NCBI GenBank assembly: GCA_963842525.1 | Contig: CAWJGT010000003.1 | Coordinates: 1,024,001-1,088,000 of the forward strand | Reading direction: 5' to 3' | Length of the DNA stretch: 64,000 bases | Origin: an uncultured Holophagales bacterium | Lineage (GTDB): Bacteria > Acidobacteriota > Thermoanaerobaculia > Multivoradales > UBA5704 | Shown: in pieces, positions 3,001 through 24,319 of the stretch | Position numbering within the stretch: the stretch's first letter is position 1 | Layout: each line of letters starts with the position of its first letter | Translations under genes and position numbers: made by a program | The notes under the pieces: model-generated | What the model was told of the DNA's origin: nothing | What the model saw: only the letters and a program-made list of their open reading frames with translations | Database searches by the model: none

Positions 3001-4265
3001 GGCAGGCTGTCGGCCACTGGGAGGCGTTGGTGGAGAAAAACGGAGGCCGCTTCTCGGAAGGGTCCATGGCCTCTCCCGACGACGCGACGGCTGCGCCGGA
3101 ACTGGGCTACCTTTCAGCCGCCATGGGCGATCTGGCAAATGCTCTGAGTGACGCAGGCCAACACGATGAAGCTCTAGCCGTGGCGGAAAGAGGGCTGCAG
3201 ATTAACAAGAGGAGGGGCGACCACCGCGAGGTCGCCGCTTATCAAACCTGTTGCGCCAGCATCCTCAAGGCAACTGGCCGCTACGACGAGGCCGACGCCC
3301 GCTACGACCTAGCTCTCGCCGCCGCCCGCCAAGCTGGGGACAGGGATCTGGAGGGAACAATCCTTCAGCATCAGGGCGGCCTTGCCAACGATCGCAACCA
3401 ACTCGATCGCGCCAGCCTCCTCTCCCAGGAGGCGCTAGAGTCCTTTCAGGAGGCGGGCGCTCAGGGTTCGATGGTGCGGACCTACAACCTCCTCGGCGTA
3501 GTTGAACAAAAGTCTGGCCGGCTGGCCGAGGCACGAGCGTGGTATGAGAAATCGCGCGAGCTGGCCGTGCAACTGAAGGATCAGGTCGGCCTAGGCCAGG
3601 CAGCTCAGAACATCGGCATGGTCTGGCAACAGGAAGGCGACGCCGCCCGCAAGCGGGGCGAGGAGCCCGACGCCCGGCGGCACTTCGAAGAAGCCTGTCG
3701 CTTTGTGGCGGAAAGTCTGCGGATCTGGAAAGCCCAGAAAAACAAACCATATGAAGCCGCTTCATGGAACGGACTCGCACAGATTCACCTCCGACTCGGC
3801 GATCTTGCCGCCGCCGAACGCCATGCCCACGCAGCTCGCCAGATCCACGAATCCCTCGGCCTCAAGGAAGCTTGGAGGGACTACAACACCCTCTCCGAGA
3901 TCGCCCAAGCCCGCGGCGACCTCGCTGCTGCCGCCGAGTGGGCCAAGAAACGCGATGACCTGCTTGCCGAGCTCAAGCGTCGCGCTGGAGGAGGCGGTGA
4001 CCTGCCTGCCCAGATGCTCGAGGCCCTGCAAGCCCTGACTCTTGCCTGTGCCCAAGCTGGCTTCGGGGATGGCGGCCTCGGCCCTGGCGAGGAAGAAGCC
4101 CTTGCCCAACTCGATGGGCTCCCTGCCCAGTTTCCTGACTTTGCCGCCTTTCTCCGTCAGATCGCCGCGGGTGAGCTGCCACCGATTCCCAACGGCCTGC
4201 CGGTCGAGCTTCGGCAGTGGCTGGAGGAGTTGGTGCAGGCGATCAGTGATCCTGCAACGCCCTGA
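3..4265 (+). CDS. CHAT (caspase-like) + TIR + STAND/NB-ARC ATPase + TPR protein (NLR-like); 5' end probably outside the window
   Basis: CHAT dyad motifs HFDGHG and LEACRS; TIR start FDVFLSHQHND..LRVWLD and SKWVQWEI; Walker A AMGGMGKT, Walker B VLMVWDNFE; long C-terminal TPR-like helical repeats. Confidence 0.85.
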   Translation: MDLPDGGAVIRAQRIERDLGHWGRRLYDVLFTVADNRDFLRELLAGPEPRRLTIATRDPALLRLPWELMADDAGSLAQRLSVRRQLEQPEETTPRPAQLPLRILYIVSRPANAGFIDPRLTSKALFDALDPLGASVRVDFCRPPTLARMEEMLRDEQVAGDPYDLVHFDGHGTFLPQAQIGALLFEKSDDGSGASVADLVPADRLGDLLASYTIPLVVLEACRSATVGKTAVFRSVAPRLIQAGVGSVLSMGHAVHVEAARRLLDRFYRELVRGTTIGQAVAEARKALLSSPARWIEPGPGGRTIELRDWFLPHLYQSAEDDALVPPEAERQHLVWRFDVFLSHQHNDSTRVEALALQLKEKHGLRVWLDLWECDTGDDVEPRCEIGIKNSRFTVVVGSQTALRSKWVQWEIDRHLAFHPEGDRLIPIKLERLELPPELNDLRWVDFTDPAQDAEAAVHLARLVRSTDAEHARQRRGFRSPANPFPLPPQHGFHGRARELYELERQLWTERGIVLHAMGGMGKTALATEAAHWWARSGLFRDGACFLSFEQFASADRVVQVLGSYLGGPRFEQLPAVEQRDRAIELFQEKGVLMVWDNFESALPQFNDGGAPHGNPYTDVERQRLAELFRDLTNGPGKGCLLVTCRPGDTGLPGAQPYELQGLARADSLWLLASILRRDGLTLADPRLSRDKLDPLLRDLADHPLSLELVGPYLRTLTPEAIRADFGKLLAKFQQETPEGRNQSLLASLEFSLRHLSPAAREALPWLGLFSGGVFEINLLEVSHLAPEDWEPIRRELQGIALLRSEDDIQIGDRPFLRFHPTLASTAAGPTLAQNPEIRQRFLSSYGAFMRVLAKALSGAQSHGALEALNREEANYRTAVQWAVADQQLQAAARLGAAFSLYLKRSGRLRERDAWVQWLKDAVDQQGFTEEAADYERQHAWTRFTQGNPQGAVDQLQTLIDRLRNTTEFDPAFQLALAVLDLGKVLEHAGASAQAIPFLRQAVGHWEALVEKNGGRFSEGSMASPDDATAAPELGYLSAAMGDLANALSDAGQHDEALAVAERGLQINKRRGDHREVAAYQTCCASILKATGRYDEADARYDLALAAARQAGDRDLEGTILQHQGGLANDRNQLDRASLLSQEALESFQEAGAQGSMVRTYNLLGVVEQKSGRLAEARAWYEKSRELAVQLKDQVGLGQAAQNIGMVWQQEGDAARKRGEEPDARRHFEEACRFVAESLRIWKAQKNKPYEAASWNGLAQIHLRLGDLAAAERHAHAARQIHESLGLKEAWRDYNTLSEIAQARGDLAAAAEWAKKRDDLLAELKRRAGGGGDLPAQMLEALQALTLACAQAGFGDGGLGPGEEEALAQLDGLPAQFPDFAAFLRQIAAGELPPIPNGLPVELRQWLEELVQAISDPATP

Positions 4266-17044: not shown

Positions 17045-19492
17045 ATGCATGGCCTGCTGAGCGAGGTCAAGCACGCCTTGCGCGGACTGGTCCGGAGCCG
17101 CACGCTCCTGGTCTCGGGTGTCCTGTGCCTCGCCTTGGGGATCGGGGCCAATGCCACGATGCTCGGGATCCTCGACACCCTTCTCTTCCGCCCTCCCGCC
17201 CACGTCGTGAAGGCGGATTCATTGAAACGGCTTTTCTTCACCGATAGCTTGCCCGGCTTCGGTGAATTCACCTCCGCCTCGACCTCGTATCCCGTCTACG
17301 CCGACCTCCGAAGAGACAACGACGACTTCTCGGCGATGGGGGCCTTCGCCACGACGGACCTTTCCCTTGATCGGGGAGCAGGGGCACGGAAAGTCCGGGT
17401 CGCTCTCGTCACTGCCAGTTTCTTGTCTGCTCTCGGAGTCAAGCCCGTCCAGGGGCGTCTCTTTACCCAGAACGAGGGCGACATCCCGGCTCCCAGTTTT
17501 GTGGCCCTGGCAAGCCACGAGCTCTGGCGCCGTGATTTCGCGGGCGAGAGCTCTCTCCTGGGCAAGGAGCTCAGGCTGGGCCGCGCCCTTTATACGATCG
17601 TTGGGGTGCTCCCCTCCGGCTTTACCGGCGTCGGCCTCGAAGCGGTCGACCTCTGGCTGCCGATCAACGCATTCGATCAGGTCATCGGTCCTGGTTGGAA
17701 CGAGAGCCGAGGCTCGTCCTTCCTGCATGTCGTGGGGCGGCTCCGGCCGGGAGTCGCTGTGGATGTTGCGCAGCGCCGGGCGACCCAGGTGCTCCGGGCG
17801 GGAAGCACGGCGGAGGGTCCCGGTCCCACTGCCCGCGTTTCTCTGCATCCCATCCAGCGCGCCAGGACACCCGGGAGATCTCCTGACGCGCGGATCGCGC
17901 AGTGGATCGCGGGAGTCTCCTTCGTCGTCCTGGCCATCGCAGGCCTCAATGTCGCCAATCTGCTGTTGGTGCGCTGGTCCGAGCGGCGGCGCGAGATCGC
18001 CCTCCGGCTCGCCCTGGGTGCAGGGCGAGCCCGGATCGCGATGTGCGTCCTTGCGGAAAGCGTGGTGCTGACCGCGTTCGGCGGCGCGGCGGCCTTGGCG
18101 GTGGCGATCGCCGGGGGCTCTCTTCTGCGGGCTTTCCTCCTGCCCGAGGGAACCCTTCCGGGAAGCTCTCTGGACCTGCGCCGGCTTGCGCTCTTTGCTC
18201 TGCCGACGCTCGGCGCGGCGCTCCTCTGCGGTGTGGTGCCGGCGCTCTGGGCCAGTCGGACCGATCCGGCGGCCGCCGGCACCTCCGGAGTGGTCCGGGG
18301 CATGGGGCGGGCCCCTTCCCGCCTGCAGATCGTGGTGCTTGCCGGACAGATGGCTCTGACGCTCGTGCTCCTGGTGGCAGCGGGCCTTTTCATCTTCAGC
18401 CTGCGCAACGTGCGCCGGCTCGATCTCGGTCTGGACGTGGGGCAGGTGTTGGTTGCCACGACGGACCTCGAGGGGATGGGACTTCCCGAGGCACGGAGCG
18501 TGTCGGTCTACCGCAGCGCCCTCGACCGCATCCGCAGCGTTCCGGGAGTGGAGCACGCGAGTCTCGCCGCCATGGTTCCCTTCCACTCCAGCTATGCCCC
18601 GGGAATTTCGTTGCCGGGCCGTGGCGAGCTGCCGAGCCTTCCGACCGGTGGCCCCTACCTCAATGCTGTCTCCGAAGACTTCTTCGCGACCGTCGGCATG
18701 TCGGTGCGGCGCGGCCGGGCTCTCCTGGCAACCGATCGCGAAGGCGCGATGCGGGTGGCTGTGGTCAACGAGACCATGGCGGGCCTCCTCTGGCCTGGCG
18801 AGGACCCGCTTGGCAAATGCCTCGGCCTCGGTGGCCCGGAGGCCGCCTGCTCTCTCGTCGTCGGCGTTGTGGAAGACGCCCGCCGGTTGGGGCTGCAAGA
18901 GGGGCGGACGATGCAGCTTTACGTTCCCATTGCGCAGGCTCCTTCGGGCCTGGGCCCCCGGGCTCTCCTCGCCCGGGTGTCCGAAAACGGTCCGGCTCTG
19001 CGAGGCACGCTCCGCCGCGAAGTCCAGGCCCTCGATCCGGAGCTTCCTTTCGTGGACGTCCACAGCCTTGCCGACCTGCTCGAGCCTCAGGTCCGGCCCT
19101 GGCGGCTCGGGATGACGGTCTTTACTCTCTTGAGCTTGCTTGCGCTGGTCCTGGGAGTGGTCGGGATTGGTGCCACGACCCTCTCGGCCATGATCCGAAG
19201 GACCTATGATCTTGCCATTCGAGGGGCGGTTGGAGCCCGGCCGCACCAGATCCTCTGGCTGGTCGTCCGGCAGGGCATTGGGAGCGCGGCCCTCGGAGCC
19301 GGCCTCGGGCTGGCTGCGGTGCTCGTTGCGGGCCGTGCGATCGAGCCGCTCCTCTTCCAGGTCTCGGCGCGAGATCCCGGCATCCTGGCAGGGGCTGTCC
19401 TGGTCCTGATGGCCGCCGCCACCGTGGCGAGCTGTATCCCCGGCTGGCGGGTCCTGCGCCTCGATCTGGCGTCGGTCCTGAGAGCCGAGTGA
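17045..19492 (+). CDS. ADOP family duplicated ABC permease (MacB/FtsX duplication)
   Basis: LALGIGANATM, two MacB_PCD/FtsX units, RRREIALRLALGAGR, ends VLRAE; no adjacent ATPase gene. Confidence 0.9.
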   Translation: MHGLLSEVKHALRGLVRSRTLLVSGVLCLALGIGANATMLGILDTLLFRPPAHVVKADSLKRLFFTDSLPGFGEFTSASTSYPVYADLRRDNDDFSAMGAFATTDLSLDRGAGARKVRVALVTASFLSALGVKPVQGRLFTQNEGDIPAPSFVALASHELWRRDFAGESSLLGKELRLGRALYTIVGVLPSGFTGVGLEAVDLWLPINAFDQVIGPGWNESRGSSFLHVVGRLRPGVAVDVAQRRATQVLRAGSTAEGPGPTARVSLHPIQRARTPGRSPDARIAQWIAGVSFVVLAIAGLNVANLLLVRWSERRREIALRLALGAGRARIAMCVLAESVVLTAFGGAAALAVAIAGGSLLRAFLLPEGTLPGSSLDLRRLALFALPTLGAALLCGVVPALWASRTDPAAAGTSGVVRGMGRAPSRLQIVVLAGQMALTLVLLVAAGLFIFSLRNVRRLDLGLDVGQVLVATTDLEGMGLPEARSVSVYRSALDRIRSVPGVEHASLAAMVPFHSSYAPGISLPGRGELPSLPTGGPYLNAVSEDFFATVGMSVRRGRALLATDREGAMRVAVVNETMAGLLWPGEDPLGKCLGLGGPEAACSLVVGVVEDARRLGLQEGRTMQLYVPIAQAPSGLGPRALLARVSENGPALRGTLRREVQALDPELPFVDVHSLADLLEPQVRPWRLGMTVFTLLSLLALVLGVVGIGATTLSAMIRRTYDLAIRGAVGARPHQILWLVVRQGIGSAALGAGLGLAAVLVAGRAIEPLLFQVSARDPGILAGAVLVLMAAATVASCIPGWRVLRLDLASVLRAE

Positions 19493-19508: not shown

Positions 19509-19916
19509 CTATGGGGCCTGGAGGCGAGGGGCGTCGTCCGCCGATTCGTCCCTCAGCGGATCGAGGATCACATCGACTGCCTCTCCGGCCAGGAGAAACA
19601 GCTCGACGGTGAGGACCTCGGCGAGGACGCGGTCGGCGCGTGGCCTCCTGCGGGCTGCGAGGCGGAAGGAACGGAGCATCCGCAGCAGGGGGTCGAGGAG
19701 GTAGCGAGGGACGTCCGTCGCCTCCGCGGTCCGCTCCAAGGCCCAACGCGGGACGGTTCGCTCGCCCCGGTCCCACATCCCCACCTGGCTCGGCAGGAAC
19801 CGGGCTGCCGCGGCGAGCTTCGCCTGCTCCCACCAGCCCCGGAGGTAGCGCATCAGCACCATGGCGAGCCGCGCGTCGGGGTCGTCCTGCGTCCTTTTCT
19901 TCCTGTCTTTCTTCAT
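19509..19916 (-). CDS. XRE-family HTH protein, short paralog of the HTH-TPR regulator N-terminus
   Basis: LRGWWEQAKLAAAARFLPSQVGMWDRGER resembles LGWSQADLAEAAGISANQINDYERGRK of the 21880 gene; AGGAGG RBS. Confidence 0.65.
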   Translation of the reverse strand: MKKDRKKRTQDDPDARLAMVLMRYLRGWWEQAKLAAAARFLPSQVGMWDRGERTVPRWALERTAEATDVPRYLLDPLLRMLRSFRLAARRRPRADRVLAEVLTVELFLLAGEAVDVILDPLRDESADDAPRLQAP

Positions 19917-20056
19917 GTCTCCTCCTGATCCGTGTCGTGGCAGCACGGGAATAGGCGACTTCCACACCGGTTCCGGGTCACCATAGCCCGGAGAGGCTCG
20001 CCCCGCGGTCATTCCGGCCGCGGCCGGGCGGCCTCCCGCGGAAAGGAGCCGGATTC

Positions 20057-20368
20057 ATGCGAATGCTTCGTAGAGCCGTCGTCATCGTCGTCCTGGGGCT
20101 CATCCTTGCGGCACCCTGGGCGTCAGCCGAGCCTGTCTTCAAGGTGACCCGTAGCCAGTCCCTTCTGCCCAGCTTGTGGAGCTTCGTCGCCCGTGTCTGG
20201 AGCGCTGCAGGCTGCTGGATCGACCCACTGGGCCGTTGCTTGGCCGGCCCACAGCCACCTTCCGCGGATGCAGGGTGTGGGATCGACCCCCTGGGCTGCC
20301 CGGCGCAGATCTCCGCGGATGAGGGGTGCATCATCGATCCTTTGGGTGGCTGCGCGCCGGGACAGTAG
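20057..20368 (+). CDS. Secreted precursor-like peptide with three GCxIDPLG(x)C repeats
   Basis: AAGGAG RBS; Sec signal ending ASA; cores GCWIDPLGRC, GCGIDPLGC, GCIIDPLGGC; followed by a terminator. Confidence 0.8.
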   Translation: MRMLRRAVVIVVLGLILAAPWASAEPVFKVTRSQSLLPSLWSFVARVWSAAGCWIDPLGRCLAGPQPPSADAGCGIDPLGCPAQISADEGCIIDPLGGCAPGQ

Positions 20369-20377
20369 CCGCTACAT

Positions 20378-20409
20378 GCCGGAGCCTTCACGGAGGCTCC
20401 GGCTTCTTT
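20378..20409 (+). terminator. Intrinsic terminator after the peptide gene
   Basis: GCCGGAGCCT...AGGCTCCGGC stem then TTCTTT. Confidence 0.7.
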
Positions 20410-21880
20410 GCCGCCTTCGAAGCGCAACTCGGGGTCGTGCCGGGCGCGATAGAGGAAGCGGAGCACGCTGCGCGTCAGCTCGATCGAGGCGGCCTCCCGC
20501 CGGGCGGCCTCGCAGAAAACCTTCAGGGCCGCCAGGGCTTCGCGGTGGACGAGCTGCCGCTGAAAAATCCAGAACATCTCGTCCGCGATGATGCGTACCT
20601 GCGCCGTCTTTCCCTGCTCCAAGAAGACTGACGACAAGTCCAGGCTCACAAGTGCGTAGTCGTAGCTCAGCTCATCTTTATGGAACGCACGCCGGACCTG
20701 TCCGAAAAGGCTCCGCGCCTTCTCGCCCTGCCCGAGCCCGGCGGCGATCTTCCCTTCCAACCAGACGACACGGGTCAGGTCCAGGTTTCCGCCCAGCCGC
20801 TCTGCCAAGCCCCCTCACTTTCGCCACTCTCGGCTGGGCCTCTTCGGCCCGCCCCAGGTCACACAGGCCAACCGTAAGGTTGAAGTGGAGGCCGAAGGCA
20901 AGTCGCGGCTCACGCTCCTCATCAATCAAGGGTGCCGCGTGTTGCAGCGCCGCTGCTGAGCCCTCTGAGTTGCCGAGAACCTCCAGGACTGCCGACTTGG
21001 TGAGGAGGATCTTCGCTTTCAACTCTCCATTGTCCAGCCCCAGAGCCTCGTTGATCTTCTGCAGGGCTTGAGGGAAGAGCCGCTGGGCTCGGCGGAGGGC
21101 TGCCTCGATCCAGGGGAGCAGGGCCGGGTTGAGGAGCCCCGGGTCGCCTGGGGCGCCGCCCTCCCACAGCTTCAAGGCCCGGGTGAGGGCCTCCCCAGCG
21201 GCGGGCATGTCGTTGCAGACCCGGAGCGCGTTGGCCAGGGCAGCGGTGGCGAGCCCCTGCAATCTCCAGCGCCACTCCTTCCGTCCAGGTACCAGCTCGG
21301 CGATGCGCACGGCCAGGCGGGCGAGCTCCAGCGCCTCTTTCGGGTGGTTGGCCGCCGCGTCCAGGCTCTCCTCCACCACCCGGAGGACCAGTCCCCAGGT
21401 TCGGAATCTCGGGTCCTTTTCGACCAGGGCGAGGCGTTCCGTCAACGTCTTCTTCTTTTTCAGCAACCCCCAGAGGACGTCGGCTCGGTCCTGTGCATGG
21501 ATGGACTCTCCCCCCAGCGAGAGCAGGGTCAGCGCCGAGCGGGCAAAGGTGGCGGCCAGCCGGCCGACCTTGGCGGCGATGGCCTCGATGCGGCGGCGCC
21601 TCACCTCGAAGCGGTCGGCGGGAGCGCCGTCGGGCCGGGCTGCGGCCCGGGTCGCCTCCATCTCGGCGAGCAGCGCATCGATCCTCTCGGGGCCGAGCCC
21701 GAGGAAGGAAGTCAGGTGCTCCAGGCGCTCGCGGGTCAGCCTCTTCCTCCCACGCTCATAGTCGTTGATCTGGTTGGCCGAGATGCCGGCGGCCTCGGCC
21801 AGGTCGGCCTGGCTCCAGCCCAGCGTCTCCCGGAGCGTGTAAAGGACGATGCTCAGATCAGGCAAGCTCTCTCGGGCCAT
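20410..21880 (-). CDS. XRE-HTH + TPR regulator (frameshift in a G5 run near 20810; 3' end approximate)
   Basis: N-terminal cro/XRE HTH; TPR-like helices continue across ORFs 20678..21880 and 19978..20808; protein-like sequence ends at DPELRFE near 20415, although the frame stays open to 19978. Confidence 0.8.
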
Positions 21881-22057
21881 GGGCTCTCCTCGTGAGTGGG
21901 GCCTCTCCCCAACAACAGTTGCCGCAGGGCCTGAATTGGGGACACGAAGACTCGGGAATTTTTTGCGATCCCACGAGATGTGCTCTCAGGGCACACCGGC
22001 AGCGGACGCACCCACCCGTGCTCGTCCTCCTCGCGAAGCCGGCCTAGCCTGGACGGT

Positions 22058-22252
22058 ATGGCGGAACGTGGAAAGCATCTCAAGGCGAACGTGGTGCAAG
22101 ACTTCGCGCGGTGCCTTTCGGTAGCCGACGCCGGCCTGCTCCTGCATGTCATCGACTGCCCGCGGTGTGCAGCCATTGCGCGCAAGGTCCTGGCGGTCAA
22201 GCCCGTGCGCCGGCGCCGCGCCGTGCCGCCGCAGGGAGAGGGCGCGCCGTGA
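22058..22252 (+). CDS. Small protein with HxxxCxxC (zf-HC2-like) motif
   Basis: MAERGKHL...LLHVIDCPRC; divergent from the HTH-TPR gene. Confidence 0.45.
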   Translation: MAERGKHLKANVVQDFARCLSVADAGLLLHVIDCPRCAAIARKVLAVKPVRRRRAVPPQGEGAP

Positions 22253-23980: not shown

Positions 23981-24319
23981 ATGATCGTCGAAAAACGCCA
24001 AATCAACGGCTTCACCGTCCTCAACGTCGAGGGGGTCATCAAGCTCGGCGAGAGCGCGCAGTTCTTTGCCCAGACCCTCGAACGGGCCCTGGCGGACGAC
24101 CGGGGCCACGTCATCGTCGACTTCTCCAGGATCAACTTCATCGACTCGACGGGCATCGGCGAGCTGGTCGGCTATCTCGGCCGCTTCCACAACGCCCGGC
24201 GCGACCTGATCCTGGTCAATCCCTCCGAGCGCATCCGCAAGCTCCTGCAGGTGGCCAAGCTGGCCGACCTGTTCACGATCTATGACACCGTGGACGCGGC
24301 CATGGCCGCGGAGCGGTAG
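23981..24319 (+). CDS. STAS anti-sigma factor antagonist
   Basis: VDFSRINFIDSTGIGEL with phospho-acceptor Ser. Confidence 0.9.
   Translation: MIVEKRQINGFTVLNVEGVIKLGESAQFFAQTLERALADDRGHVIVDFSRINFIDSTGIGELVGYLGRFHNARRDLILVNPSERIRKLLQVAKLADLFTIYDTVDAAMAAER

Follow-up and report, generated by a model that had tools for sequence, protein, structure and literature searches.

We analysed a 64,000-nucleotide stretch of DNA from an uncultured Holophagales bacterium of the Acidobacteriota (GenBank assembly GCA_963842525.1, contig CAWJGT010000003.1, positions 1,024,001 to 1,088,000 of the forward strand), referred to below as the window, together with the genome from which it comes. The window carries a gene for a small, putatively exported precursor peptide with three repeated cores and, next to it, a gene for a regulator that joins an XRE-type helix-turn-helix (HTH) domain to tetratricopeptide repeats (TPR). 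This two-gene unit occurs in about sixty copies in one soil Acidobacteria genome, and no earlier description of the family was found in the literature searched. We tentatively read the locus as an analogue, in a diderm host, of the RRNPP peptide-receptor signalling systems, that is, as a duplicated, lineage-specific module without detectable homology to RRNPP, and we put the chance of this reading at a little short of even.

Gene-encoded peptide pheromones whose receptors are cytoplasmic TPR proteins count as a hallmark of Bacillota, their phages and their plasmids. RRNPP systems are presented as systems of Bacillota/Firmicutes (PMC10075063, PMC9765709), and diderm bacteria are described as known mainly for small-molecule signals (PMC10075063). 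A literature search that did not cover the taxon tables in survey supplements found nothing joining RRNPP or peptide-based quorum sensing with Acidobacteria/Acidobacteriota. If the peptides described here are signals, an abundant soil phylum holds a large unexplored vocabulary of cell-to-cell communication or kin recognition and, with it, a natural library of short turn/loop peptides matched to TPR binders. Even if they are not signals, what remains is a large regulatory module, so far undescribed, in which domains are swapped in an unusual way and a cis-element is held in common.

The DPxG precursor family and its TPR genes

The peptide gene of the window and the elements belonging to it are listed here, with residues numbered on the precursor.

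20057-20368 (+): peptide precursor gene, a 103-aa open reading frame (ORF) with signal peptide, pro-region and three Cys-bracketed cores
Residues 1-24: Sec-type signal peptide (MRMLRR, a Leu/Val-rich core, then AAPWASA/EP, the slash marking the predicted cleavage site)
Residues 40-48: LWSFVARVW helix within the pro-region of the 103-aa precursor
20213-20239 (+): core 1, CWIDPLGRC, residues 53-61 (GCWIDPLGRC)
20276-20299 (+): core 2, CGIDPLGC, residues 74-81 (GCGIDPLGC)
20327-20353 (+): core 3, CIIDPLGGC, residues 91-99 (GCIIDPLGGC)
20043-20048 (+): Shine-Dalgarno sequence AAGGAG, 8 nt 5' of the peptide ATG
19987-20041 (+): long GC-rich inverted repeat that takes up the leader from a putative -10 (CACCATA) to the ribosome-binding site (RBS)
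20378-20413 (+), hairpin 20378-20403: terminator-like element whose hairpin has 11 pairs (8 GC) and a T-rich tail, TTCTTT

All components named in the original prediction, namely the 103-aa ORF with its RBS and terminator, the signal, the LWSFVARVW segment and the three cores, are present at 20057-20368 (+) and its immediate flanks. The translated N terminus is signal-like (MRMLRRAVVIVVLGLILAAPWASA/EP), SA(A/D)(A/E)G precedes each of the three cores, and the terminator-like hairpin starts 10 nt 3' of the peptide stop, between the convergent genes. GAAAGGAG is conserved across the leader alignment of peptide genes (A6). The window precursor matched no family in Pfam or NCBIfam.

With the window peptide as query, jackhmmer recovered 61 family members among all stop-to-stop frames of 50 aa or more in its own genome (9.95 Mb, 34 contigs, 67.8% GC). 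Starts were assignable for 55 of these and not for the other 6, and the counts written out of 55 refer to the former; paralogs and related genomes are non-independent observations throughout. The members share a common plan of signal peptide, amphipathic (L/F)WxxLxxxW segment and one to four cores, the segment being found in 42-43 of 55 precursors and in both of the classes described below. A total of 109 cores were defined by the pattern DPxG, which is hence invariant by construction. Around it, position -6 is D/E in 93 cores, position -4 is G in 90, and position -1 is I/L/M in 94; positions -3, -2 and +2 are variable, and the consensus reads D/E-x-G-x-x-(I/L/M)-D-P-x-G. The original observation that only x varies in GCxIDPLG is correct for the three window cores, but family-wide more varies, and what stays constant is DPxG, preceded by I/L/M and, further upstream, by D/E-x-G. 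The C terminus falls exactly at DPxG in 21/55 precursors, and many members have a mature region rich in Cys, His and Asp.

Peptide genes of this family nearly always lie beside TPR genes. For 54 of the 61, the distance to at least one of 145 TPR-family ORFs (E<1e-15) is no more than 1.5 kb, compared to a random expectation of 3.6 on average and 10 at most over 500 placements; with a looser set of 199 TPR-family ORFs, 56/61 are linked. When loci in 11 other genomes were sought with the peptide, a TPR ORF adjoined the peptide gene in 10/11, the exception being a 2-kb contig. Loci sought with the regulator had a peptide gene directly downstream in 7/7 cases, and those sought with DNA had the peptide gene directly downstream of the regulator in 5/6. 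The search for DPxG peptides next to HTH-TPR genes, proposed originally as a check, came out strongly positive for this TPR family in the own-genome, peptide-seeded and regulator-seeded sets alike.

The loci could be sorted into two classes, whose counts rest on stop-to-stop ORFs and simple distance rules; 15/61 loci match neither rule. In class A (17 loci, including the window), the peptide gene has a convergent TPR gene on one side and, on the other, a further HTH or HTH-TPR gene in divergent orientation, and in relatives the stop codons of the peptide and TPR genes are 3-40 nt apart. All class A precursors have Cys-bracketed cores (17/17), and none ends at a core (0/17). The convergent partner ORF matches the HTH N-domain profile in 8/17 loci and does not in 9/17, and several of these nine are split copies with the HTH in a neighbouring frame. 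In class B (29 loci), a gene for a TPR protein of ~450 aa lies directly downstream of the peptide gene on the same strand. Here 25/29 precursors are without a Cys-bracketed core, and the last core is mostly at or near the C terminus, 23/29 ending at DPxG plus at most three residues. Given Cys-bracketed cores in 22/55 precursors and their absence from these 25 class B members, a disulfide-closed loop, suggested from the window copy, does not stand as a trait of the family and would be one of a subfamily.

Class B TPR proteins matched TPR families only in Pfam (10/10 scanned). Their N termini carry an invariant H33, C38 and C41 (H-x4-C-x2-C) and a nearly invariant H5-P6. A cluster of small XRE-HTH proteins is present in 18 peptide loci and, by map reading, lies beside ~15 class B loci; all four of the class B-linked proteins scanned match HTH_31 or HTH_3, three of them above the curated cut-off. 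Proteins of 64-80 aa with an HxxxCxxC motif, one of which is encoded in the window, form a cluster of 6 ORFs near class A loci (alignment A7; 50-55% identity to the window copy). When four sequences of this family (A7) were compared with the class B TPR N terminus, hhalign gave 62.6% (E 7.2e-5) with H...H...C..C in register; the 64-aa window sequence alone gave 3% (E 0.015). These alignments point with moderate strength to a relationship between the 64-aa family and the class B N-terminal motif. Three modules (HTH, a possibly metal-binding His/Cys motif, and TPR) are accordingly arranged either as an HTH-TPR protein plus a motif protein or as a motif-TPR protein plus an HTH protein. Because the modules swap between fused and separate states, a domain-fusion argument suggests that they act together with the peptide. 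Moreover, peptide class and receptor architecture co-vary among the 61 own-genome loci.

Zinc-binding anti-sigma factors (ZAS) carry an HxxxCxxC motif. The 64-aa protein resembles them in its H-x3-C-x2-C with a further upstream His, and the class B proteins do so in H33, C38, C41 and the near-invariant H5. Unlike ZAS, these proteins gave no Pfam zf-HC2 match (E<=1), and the class B spacing is H-x4-C-x2-C; no sigma-factor gene is found among the neighbour families common to several of the 61 loci, and the linked partner is an XRE HTH protein.

A profile built from 22 paralogs (A1) retrieved 3648 cluster representatives at E<=1e-3 and 725 at E<=1e-10 among 1.84 billion, nearly all of them 85-170 aa long. 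Pfam and NCBIfam gave no family name, and the ESM Atlas gave only 'hypothetical protein' clusters of Acidobacteriota; in databases, relatives are named only 'helix-turn-helix transcriptional regulator', 'tetratricopeptide repeat protein' or 'hypothetical protein'. A1 matches (E<=1e-3) occur in 32/41 related genomes. All 24 genomes of the same family have them, with 7-60 each and 40-60 within the genus, and among the other families of the order the count is 5/11. Of 300 further genomes sampled evenly across the phylum, with 16 candidates scored per genome, a single one matched, which belonged to the same family, and the others gave none (0/299, E<=1e-5). Seven loci with close relatives of the regulator are labelled Thermoanaerobaculia (5), Acidobacteriota (1) and Gemmatimonadales (1, on a 3.9-kb contig). 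No relative was found on viral contigs in two single-protein scans, which reach close relatives only. The gene pair is restricted to one lineage.

Some members and matches depart from the common form. P0124, a distant five-core member, matches DUF6799 over residues 111-147 with 31.1 bits, compared to a Pfam cut-off of 26.8. P0235 is 669 aa long, with a signal-like N terminus, 8 stretches recognised by HMMER and, by eye, many more DPxG motifs, and it has no Pfam family. P0134 (4336 aa) has 24 profile stretches but HAMP-like repeats and may be a helical-repeat artefact.

Among the neighbour families common to several of the 61 loci, there is no radical SAM, cyclodehydratase, lanthionine synthetase, peptidase or ABC-maturation enzyme. 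Immunity and transporter genes are likewise not enriched in the neighbourhood of these loci, the neighbour clusters consisting of regulators and small proteins, and PADLOC gave weak generic HTH matches and nothing else. No modifying enzyme adjoins the window locus either, whose neighbours are a MacB/FtsX permease, an unknown membrane protein, a STAS protein and asparaginase II; the original remark that none is adjacent agrees with both results. These neighbourhoods bear on the idea that the peptides are precursors of ribosomally synthesized and post-translationally modified peptides (RiPPs), in which the helix would be a leader to be recognised by one common enzyme of modification or cleavage, its gene lying elsewhere in the genome, and the TPR proteins would be pathway regulators or recognition partners. 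The layout of a conserved leader with variable multiple cores is that of multi-core RiPP precursors, the class A cores are Cys-rich, and P0124 passes the DUF6799 cut-off. Nevertheless, we hold this idea to be quite improbable: the modification enzyme is missing both from the shared neighbour families and from the window locus, a signal peptide of the classical kind, with its AxA site, suggests that an unmodified chain is exported via Sec, and none of the A1 members matches DUF6799 (0/22).

Receptor fold and the leader inverted repeat

On inspection of the N termini, both receptor types are without a signal peptide or transmembrane segment. AlphaFold2 modelled an intact class A protein with a predicted local distance difference test (pLDDT) score of 90.4 and a class B protein with 88.6; both models are all-helical and comprise a small N-domain, one long helix and some eight helix pairs. 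Compared to the PDB, the class A model ranked RapJ-PhrC (4gyo) first (E 6.2e-6, TMt 0.61), with LGN at 1.4e-5; 4gyo was followed by LGN complexes, other Rap proteins and PlcR-PapR. The class B model ranked LGN first (3.6e-7) and Rap 13th, LGN being followed by Rap proteins (4gyo and the phi3T and phi105 Raps) and NprR. The best bacterial matches in the PDB are peptide-bound forms of Rap, PlcR and NprR (4gyo 6.2e-6, 3u3w 2.9e-4 and 5dbk 2.8e-4). As modelled, the receptor fold is a TPR superhelix of the peptide-binding type, and the XRE-HTH plus TPR architecture first proposed for the window regulator is borne out, as that of a cytoplasmic protein with a TPR superhelix.

Complex prediction of the TPR domain (residues 135-481, A3) with the mature peptide (residues 26-99, A4) gave scores of 0.56, 0.01 and 0.01, which weigh neither way on binding. 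Since adjacent genes that are duplicated as a unit share their history, congruent receptor and core trees cannot discriminate binding. The genome has three genes for SBP_bac_5 (Opp/Dpp-type) binding proteins, showing only that peptide importers exist. A linkage to Opp was considered, as two of these three genes lie within ~3 kb of TPR-family genes (contig C9:403765-404823 and contig C1:375359-376348), and was dropped because so few cases allow no judgement and permease genes were not recognised.

In type III secretion, TPR class II chaperones are paired with activators (IpgC-MxiE, SicA-InvF); through its binding to an exported partner, the cytoplasmic TPR protein governs a DNA-binding protein that is separate from it. 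A comparable arrangement can be drawn up for the present family as a secretion-coupled feedback. The TPR protein would bind the unexported precursor, for example at LWxxLxxxW, and export would free it to alter its HTH partner. Consistent with this, the pro-region helix found in 42-43 of 55 precursors is common to both classes, the peptide and TPR genes are co-directional at 29 loci, and in class B a cytoplasmic TPR protein and an HTH protein can be separate, as in the chaperone-activator pairs. Unlike those pairs, the present loci have no secretion apparatus, their signal peptides are of the Sec type, and the HTH is of the XRE rather than the AraC type. Moreover, a feedback of this kind leaves the repeated variable cores and the precursors ending exactly at a core unexplained and gives no reason for ~sixty paralogs, and Sec substrates of such size are not, to our knowledge, in need of dedicated chaperones. 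We consider it improbable.

The peptide genes of both classes also share a leader element. A long imperfect inverted repeat is present in the 55-60 nt before the RBS, within the 70 nt 5' of the peptide start, at 35 loci (the window, 17 others in its genome and 17 of relatives). The apex of the window repeat, at 20003-20023, reads CCGCGGTC-ATTCC-GGCCGCGG, and the family consensus of the apex is GGCC-ATGGR-GGCC. The strict apex has 46 matches in the genome, 11 of which lie 31-36 nt before the start of a family peptide, a strong enrichment; most of the other 35 are without an RBS plus start downstream and apparently lie inside other sequence. Just upstream of the repeat, a conserved CACCATA-like box, recognised by eye, may be the -10. 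RNAfold gave the leaders energies of -22 to -42 kcal/mol (window copy, -40.3), with a mean z of -1.9 relative to shuffles. RNAalifold predicted 3 pairs on a MAFFT alignment of 31 leaders, because the outer stems of the leaders do not align. The sense strand folds more stably than the antisense strand in 23/35 leaders (Wilcoxon p 0.028, the sequences not being independent), and G-U and A-C mismatches number 35 to 26 under a crude ungapped anchoring of 66/70 leaders. The leader repeat may be either a palindromic operator bound by the HTH proteins or a hairpin formed by the 5'-terminal part of the mRNA. The GGCAC...TT motif upstream of the leader was also considered as a sigma-54 promoter and rejected by eye, since its GG lacks conservation and its spacing misses by one even in the best case.

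A conserved inverted repeat in the peptide leaders, where a regulator would act, would also suit a peptide secreted as an end product in its own right, be it antimicrobial, metal-binding, adhesive or protease-inhibitor-like, with the TPR and HTH proteins as its dedicated regulators, which would sense something else and not have the peptide as ligand. Tight linkage is equally expected of a regulator and its target gene, many members have the Cys-, His- and Asp-rich mature region noted above, and the size and core number of P0235 suggest that DPxG may be a structural repeat and not a signal. However, no immunity, transporter or modification gene is enriched nearby, and peptide class co-varies with receptor architecture. 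A regulator of ~450-490 aa with a peptide-binding-type groove for each 90-aa product, some sixty times over, is also hard to explain without a ligand role. On balance, an end product of this kind seems unlikely to us.

Proposed peptide signalling in a diderm host

Under the RRNPP-like reading that we favour, the precursor would be exported via Sec and cut by signal peptidase at AxA, and the cores would then be freed by extracellular or periplasmic proteolysis. The freed short peptides would be taken up again and bind the TPR groove, and binding would switch HTH output at the inverted repeat of the peptide promoter/leader and at other targets. Duplication, with divergence of cores and receptors, would have given rise to dozens of separate channels.

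The RRNPP(A) systems (Rap-Phr, NprR-NprX, PlcR-PapR, Rgg-SHP, PrgX and AimR-AimP) share with the present loci a small adjoining gene for an exported pro-peptide and a cytoplasmic TPR-superhelix receptor, to which an XRE-type HTH is fused N-terminally (here in class A only). Expansion by duplication with variable peptide positions is another common feature, and Rap, PlcR and NprR are the closest bacterial proteins in fold. In Phr, PapR and AimP, the active unit lies at the exact C terminus of the precursor, which is paralleled by the last core of class B, a candidate active unit at the C-terminal end. In contrast to RRNPP(A), the present precursors have 1-4 cores with an invariant DPxG turn motif and a conserved amphipathic pro-region, and in class A the cores are Cys-bracketed loops. 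The class B receptors have a His/Cys motif domain in place of the HTH, which is on a separate protein, and there are ~60 copies per genome. Tandemly duplicated pheromone propeptides are reported in RRNPPA systems, in Rap-Phr of Bacillota (PMC11343458); they would be alike in having several pheromone units per precursor and extracellular proteolytic release, which here is presumed, and unlike in that the units here are DPxG cores, often bracketed by putative disulfides, and the host is an acidobacterium and not a member of Bacillota.

Several points weigh against the signalling reading. Eukaryotic LGN and designed TPR proteins match the receptor fold equally well or better, and because generic TPR proteins match as well, the fold says only that the receptors are of the TPR peptide-binder type. 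When the 488-aa HTH-TPR protein and the class B TPR protein were searched with phmmer against all PDB chains, no RRNPP chain was found at E<=1. With no sequence similarity to RRNPP chains in the PDB, with LGN fitting the fold just as well, and with a host among the diderm Acidobacteriota and not among Bacillota or their mobile elements, the RRNPP membership implied by the original prediction was not sustained. In such a host, export past the outer membrane and re-import across two membranes have to be assumed, and a disulfide-closed loop would be reduced in the cytoplasm. We know of no precedent for ~sixty parallel quorum channels in one genome. Furthermore, the conserved pro-region helix and the shared leader element are not traits of RRNPP propeptides and hint at another logic. 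The class A peptide gene is flanked by two regulators, either of which is possibly cognate, and many paralogs, including the window copy, are split or frameshifted.

In a more far-reaching form of the signalling reading, which strikes us as somewhat unlikely, each cell of an abundant, uncultured diderm soil lineage would run dozens of private channels, made up of multi-core DPxG pro-peptides, their own TPR receptors in two interchangeable architectures and a shared leader. This would amount to a pheromone or kin code that evolved independently outside Bacillota and has thousands of variants in soil metagenomes.

Flanking genes and further observations

The genes that flank the peptide gene in the window are as follows.

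19509-19916 (-): HTH-only gene, 135 aa, divergent from the peptide gene, with AGGAGGAG 5 nt 5' of the ATG
20410-21880 (-): XRE-HTH plus TPR regulator gene, convergent with the peptide gene, in two frames
20815-21880 (-): N-terminal part of the regulator, in which residues 10-70 form an XRE-type HTH; then come a long linker helix and the initial TPR-like repeats
20810-20814 (no strand): C5 homopolymer, site of a 1-nt frameshift by frame comparison with the relative loci L010 and L049 (alignment A2)
20410-20808 (-): C-terminal TPR part of the regulator, read in a different frame from the N-terminal part, with homology up to ...HDPELRFEGG
22058-22252 (+): gene for the small 64-aa protein (H30-x3-C34-x2-C37, KH near the N terminus), divergent from the HTH-TPR gene

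As predicted originally, XRE-type regulators flank the peptide gene on both sides: an HTH is present in the convergent gene and a divergent HTH-only gene lies on the other side, but the convergent gene is frameshifted at the C5 run. In the regulator ORF 20678-21880 (-), Pfam recognised HTH_31 (6.9e-13) and HTH_3 (1.6e-12), which places the HTH above the curated cut-off, and NCBIfam gave generic HTH matches below the cut-off and nothing more. The TPR part of the window regulator is weakly seen by Pfam (TPR_12, E 0.045) and is clear in its orthologues and paralogs (Pfam) and in the AlphaFold2 model of an intact relative. The 135-aa protein had no Pfam match. Its residues 11-89 align to positions 15-92 of the HTH-TPR alignment (A3; hhalign 91.9%, E 7e-7), a jackhmmer search with it matches the N-terminal regions of HTH-TPR paralogs, and a homologue occupies the same position in L049 (3413-3841). 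By these alignments, the 135-aa protein appears to be a paralog with the HTH alone, corresponding to the N-terminal domain of HTH-TPR regulators.

Past ...AKVRGL, homology of the regulator (LAERLGGNLDL...HDPELRFE, the C-terminal 130 residues) resumes in the frame of ORF 19978-20808. The shifted frame has no stop after the usual ...HDPELRFE and continues across the hairpin and, in antisense, across the peptide gene, which we read, from the sequence comparison, as a probable consequence of a lost stop or a frame error. As the antisense frame of the regulator is open across the peptide gene, a spurious peptide ORF was considered; this was excluded, the peptide frame being that of a conserved protein family. 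In L049, an intact HTH-TPR protein of 488 aa ends 36 nt before the peptide stop. HTH-TPR homologues at E<=1e-10 number 804 (8000 candidates scored), and more than 100 library homologues are ~490 aa long. The frame shift at C5 reflects either a pseudogene or an assembly error in homopolymer length; since the receptor gene is frameshifted, the window unit may be defective or may be mis-assembled at the homopolymer. Several further paralogs are split in two frames or have internal stops (for example on contigs C10, 31417-32473; C19, 69242-70404; C9, 1446840-1447933; C1, 45568-46600), through either widespread paralog decay or homopolymer assembly errors.

As an addition to the original prediction, the gene for the 64-aa HxxxCxxC protein makes a fourth member of the locus and recurs at loci of this kind; the protein has no Pfam family. 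Upstream of the locus, an 815-aa duplicated MacB_PCD/FtsX permease (17045-19492, +) ends 17 nt from the 135-aa HTH gene, and a STAS-domain protein is encoded nearby (23981-24319, +); neither is enriched at other loci of the family. A family of ~130-aa proteins that end in ...RNERLVxFGxxPxRKR lies beside 7 peptide loci (C14:58409-59547, C24:112917-113351, C25:267033-267966, C29:23064-23477, C34:231450-231881 and C5:36424-37041) and matches no Pfam family at E<0.05. Beside the orthologous locus L049, a secreted Cys-/Gly-rich protein of 125 aa (3868-4245, +) is encoded, which is unrelated to the DPxG family.

Copies of the module are clustered in places. A tandem array with six class B TPR genes and three peptide genes spans 19 kb (C9:421000-440000, L029), and three class A modules lie within 7 kb (C14:49000-59000, L030). 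Identical copies are found at contig ends (C9:3995 and C18:2597; C8:907 and C10:32941), indicating that such repeats break the assembly.

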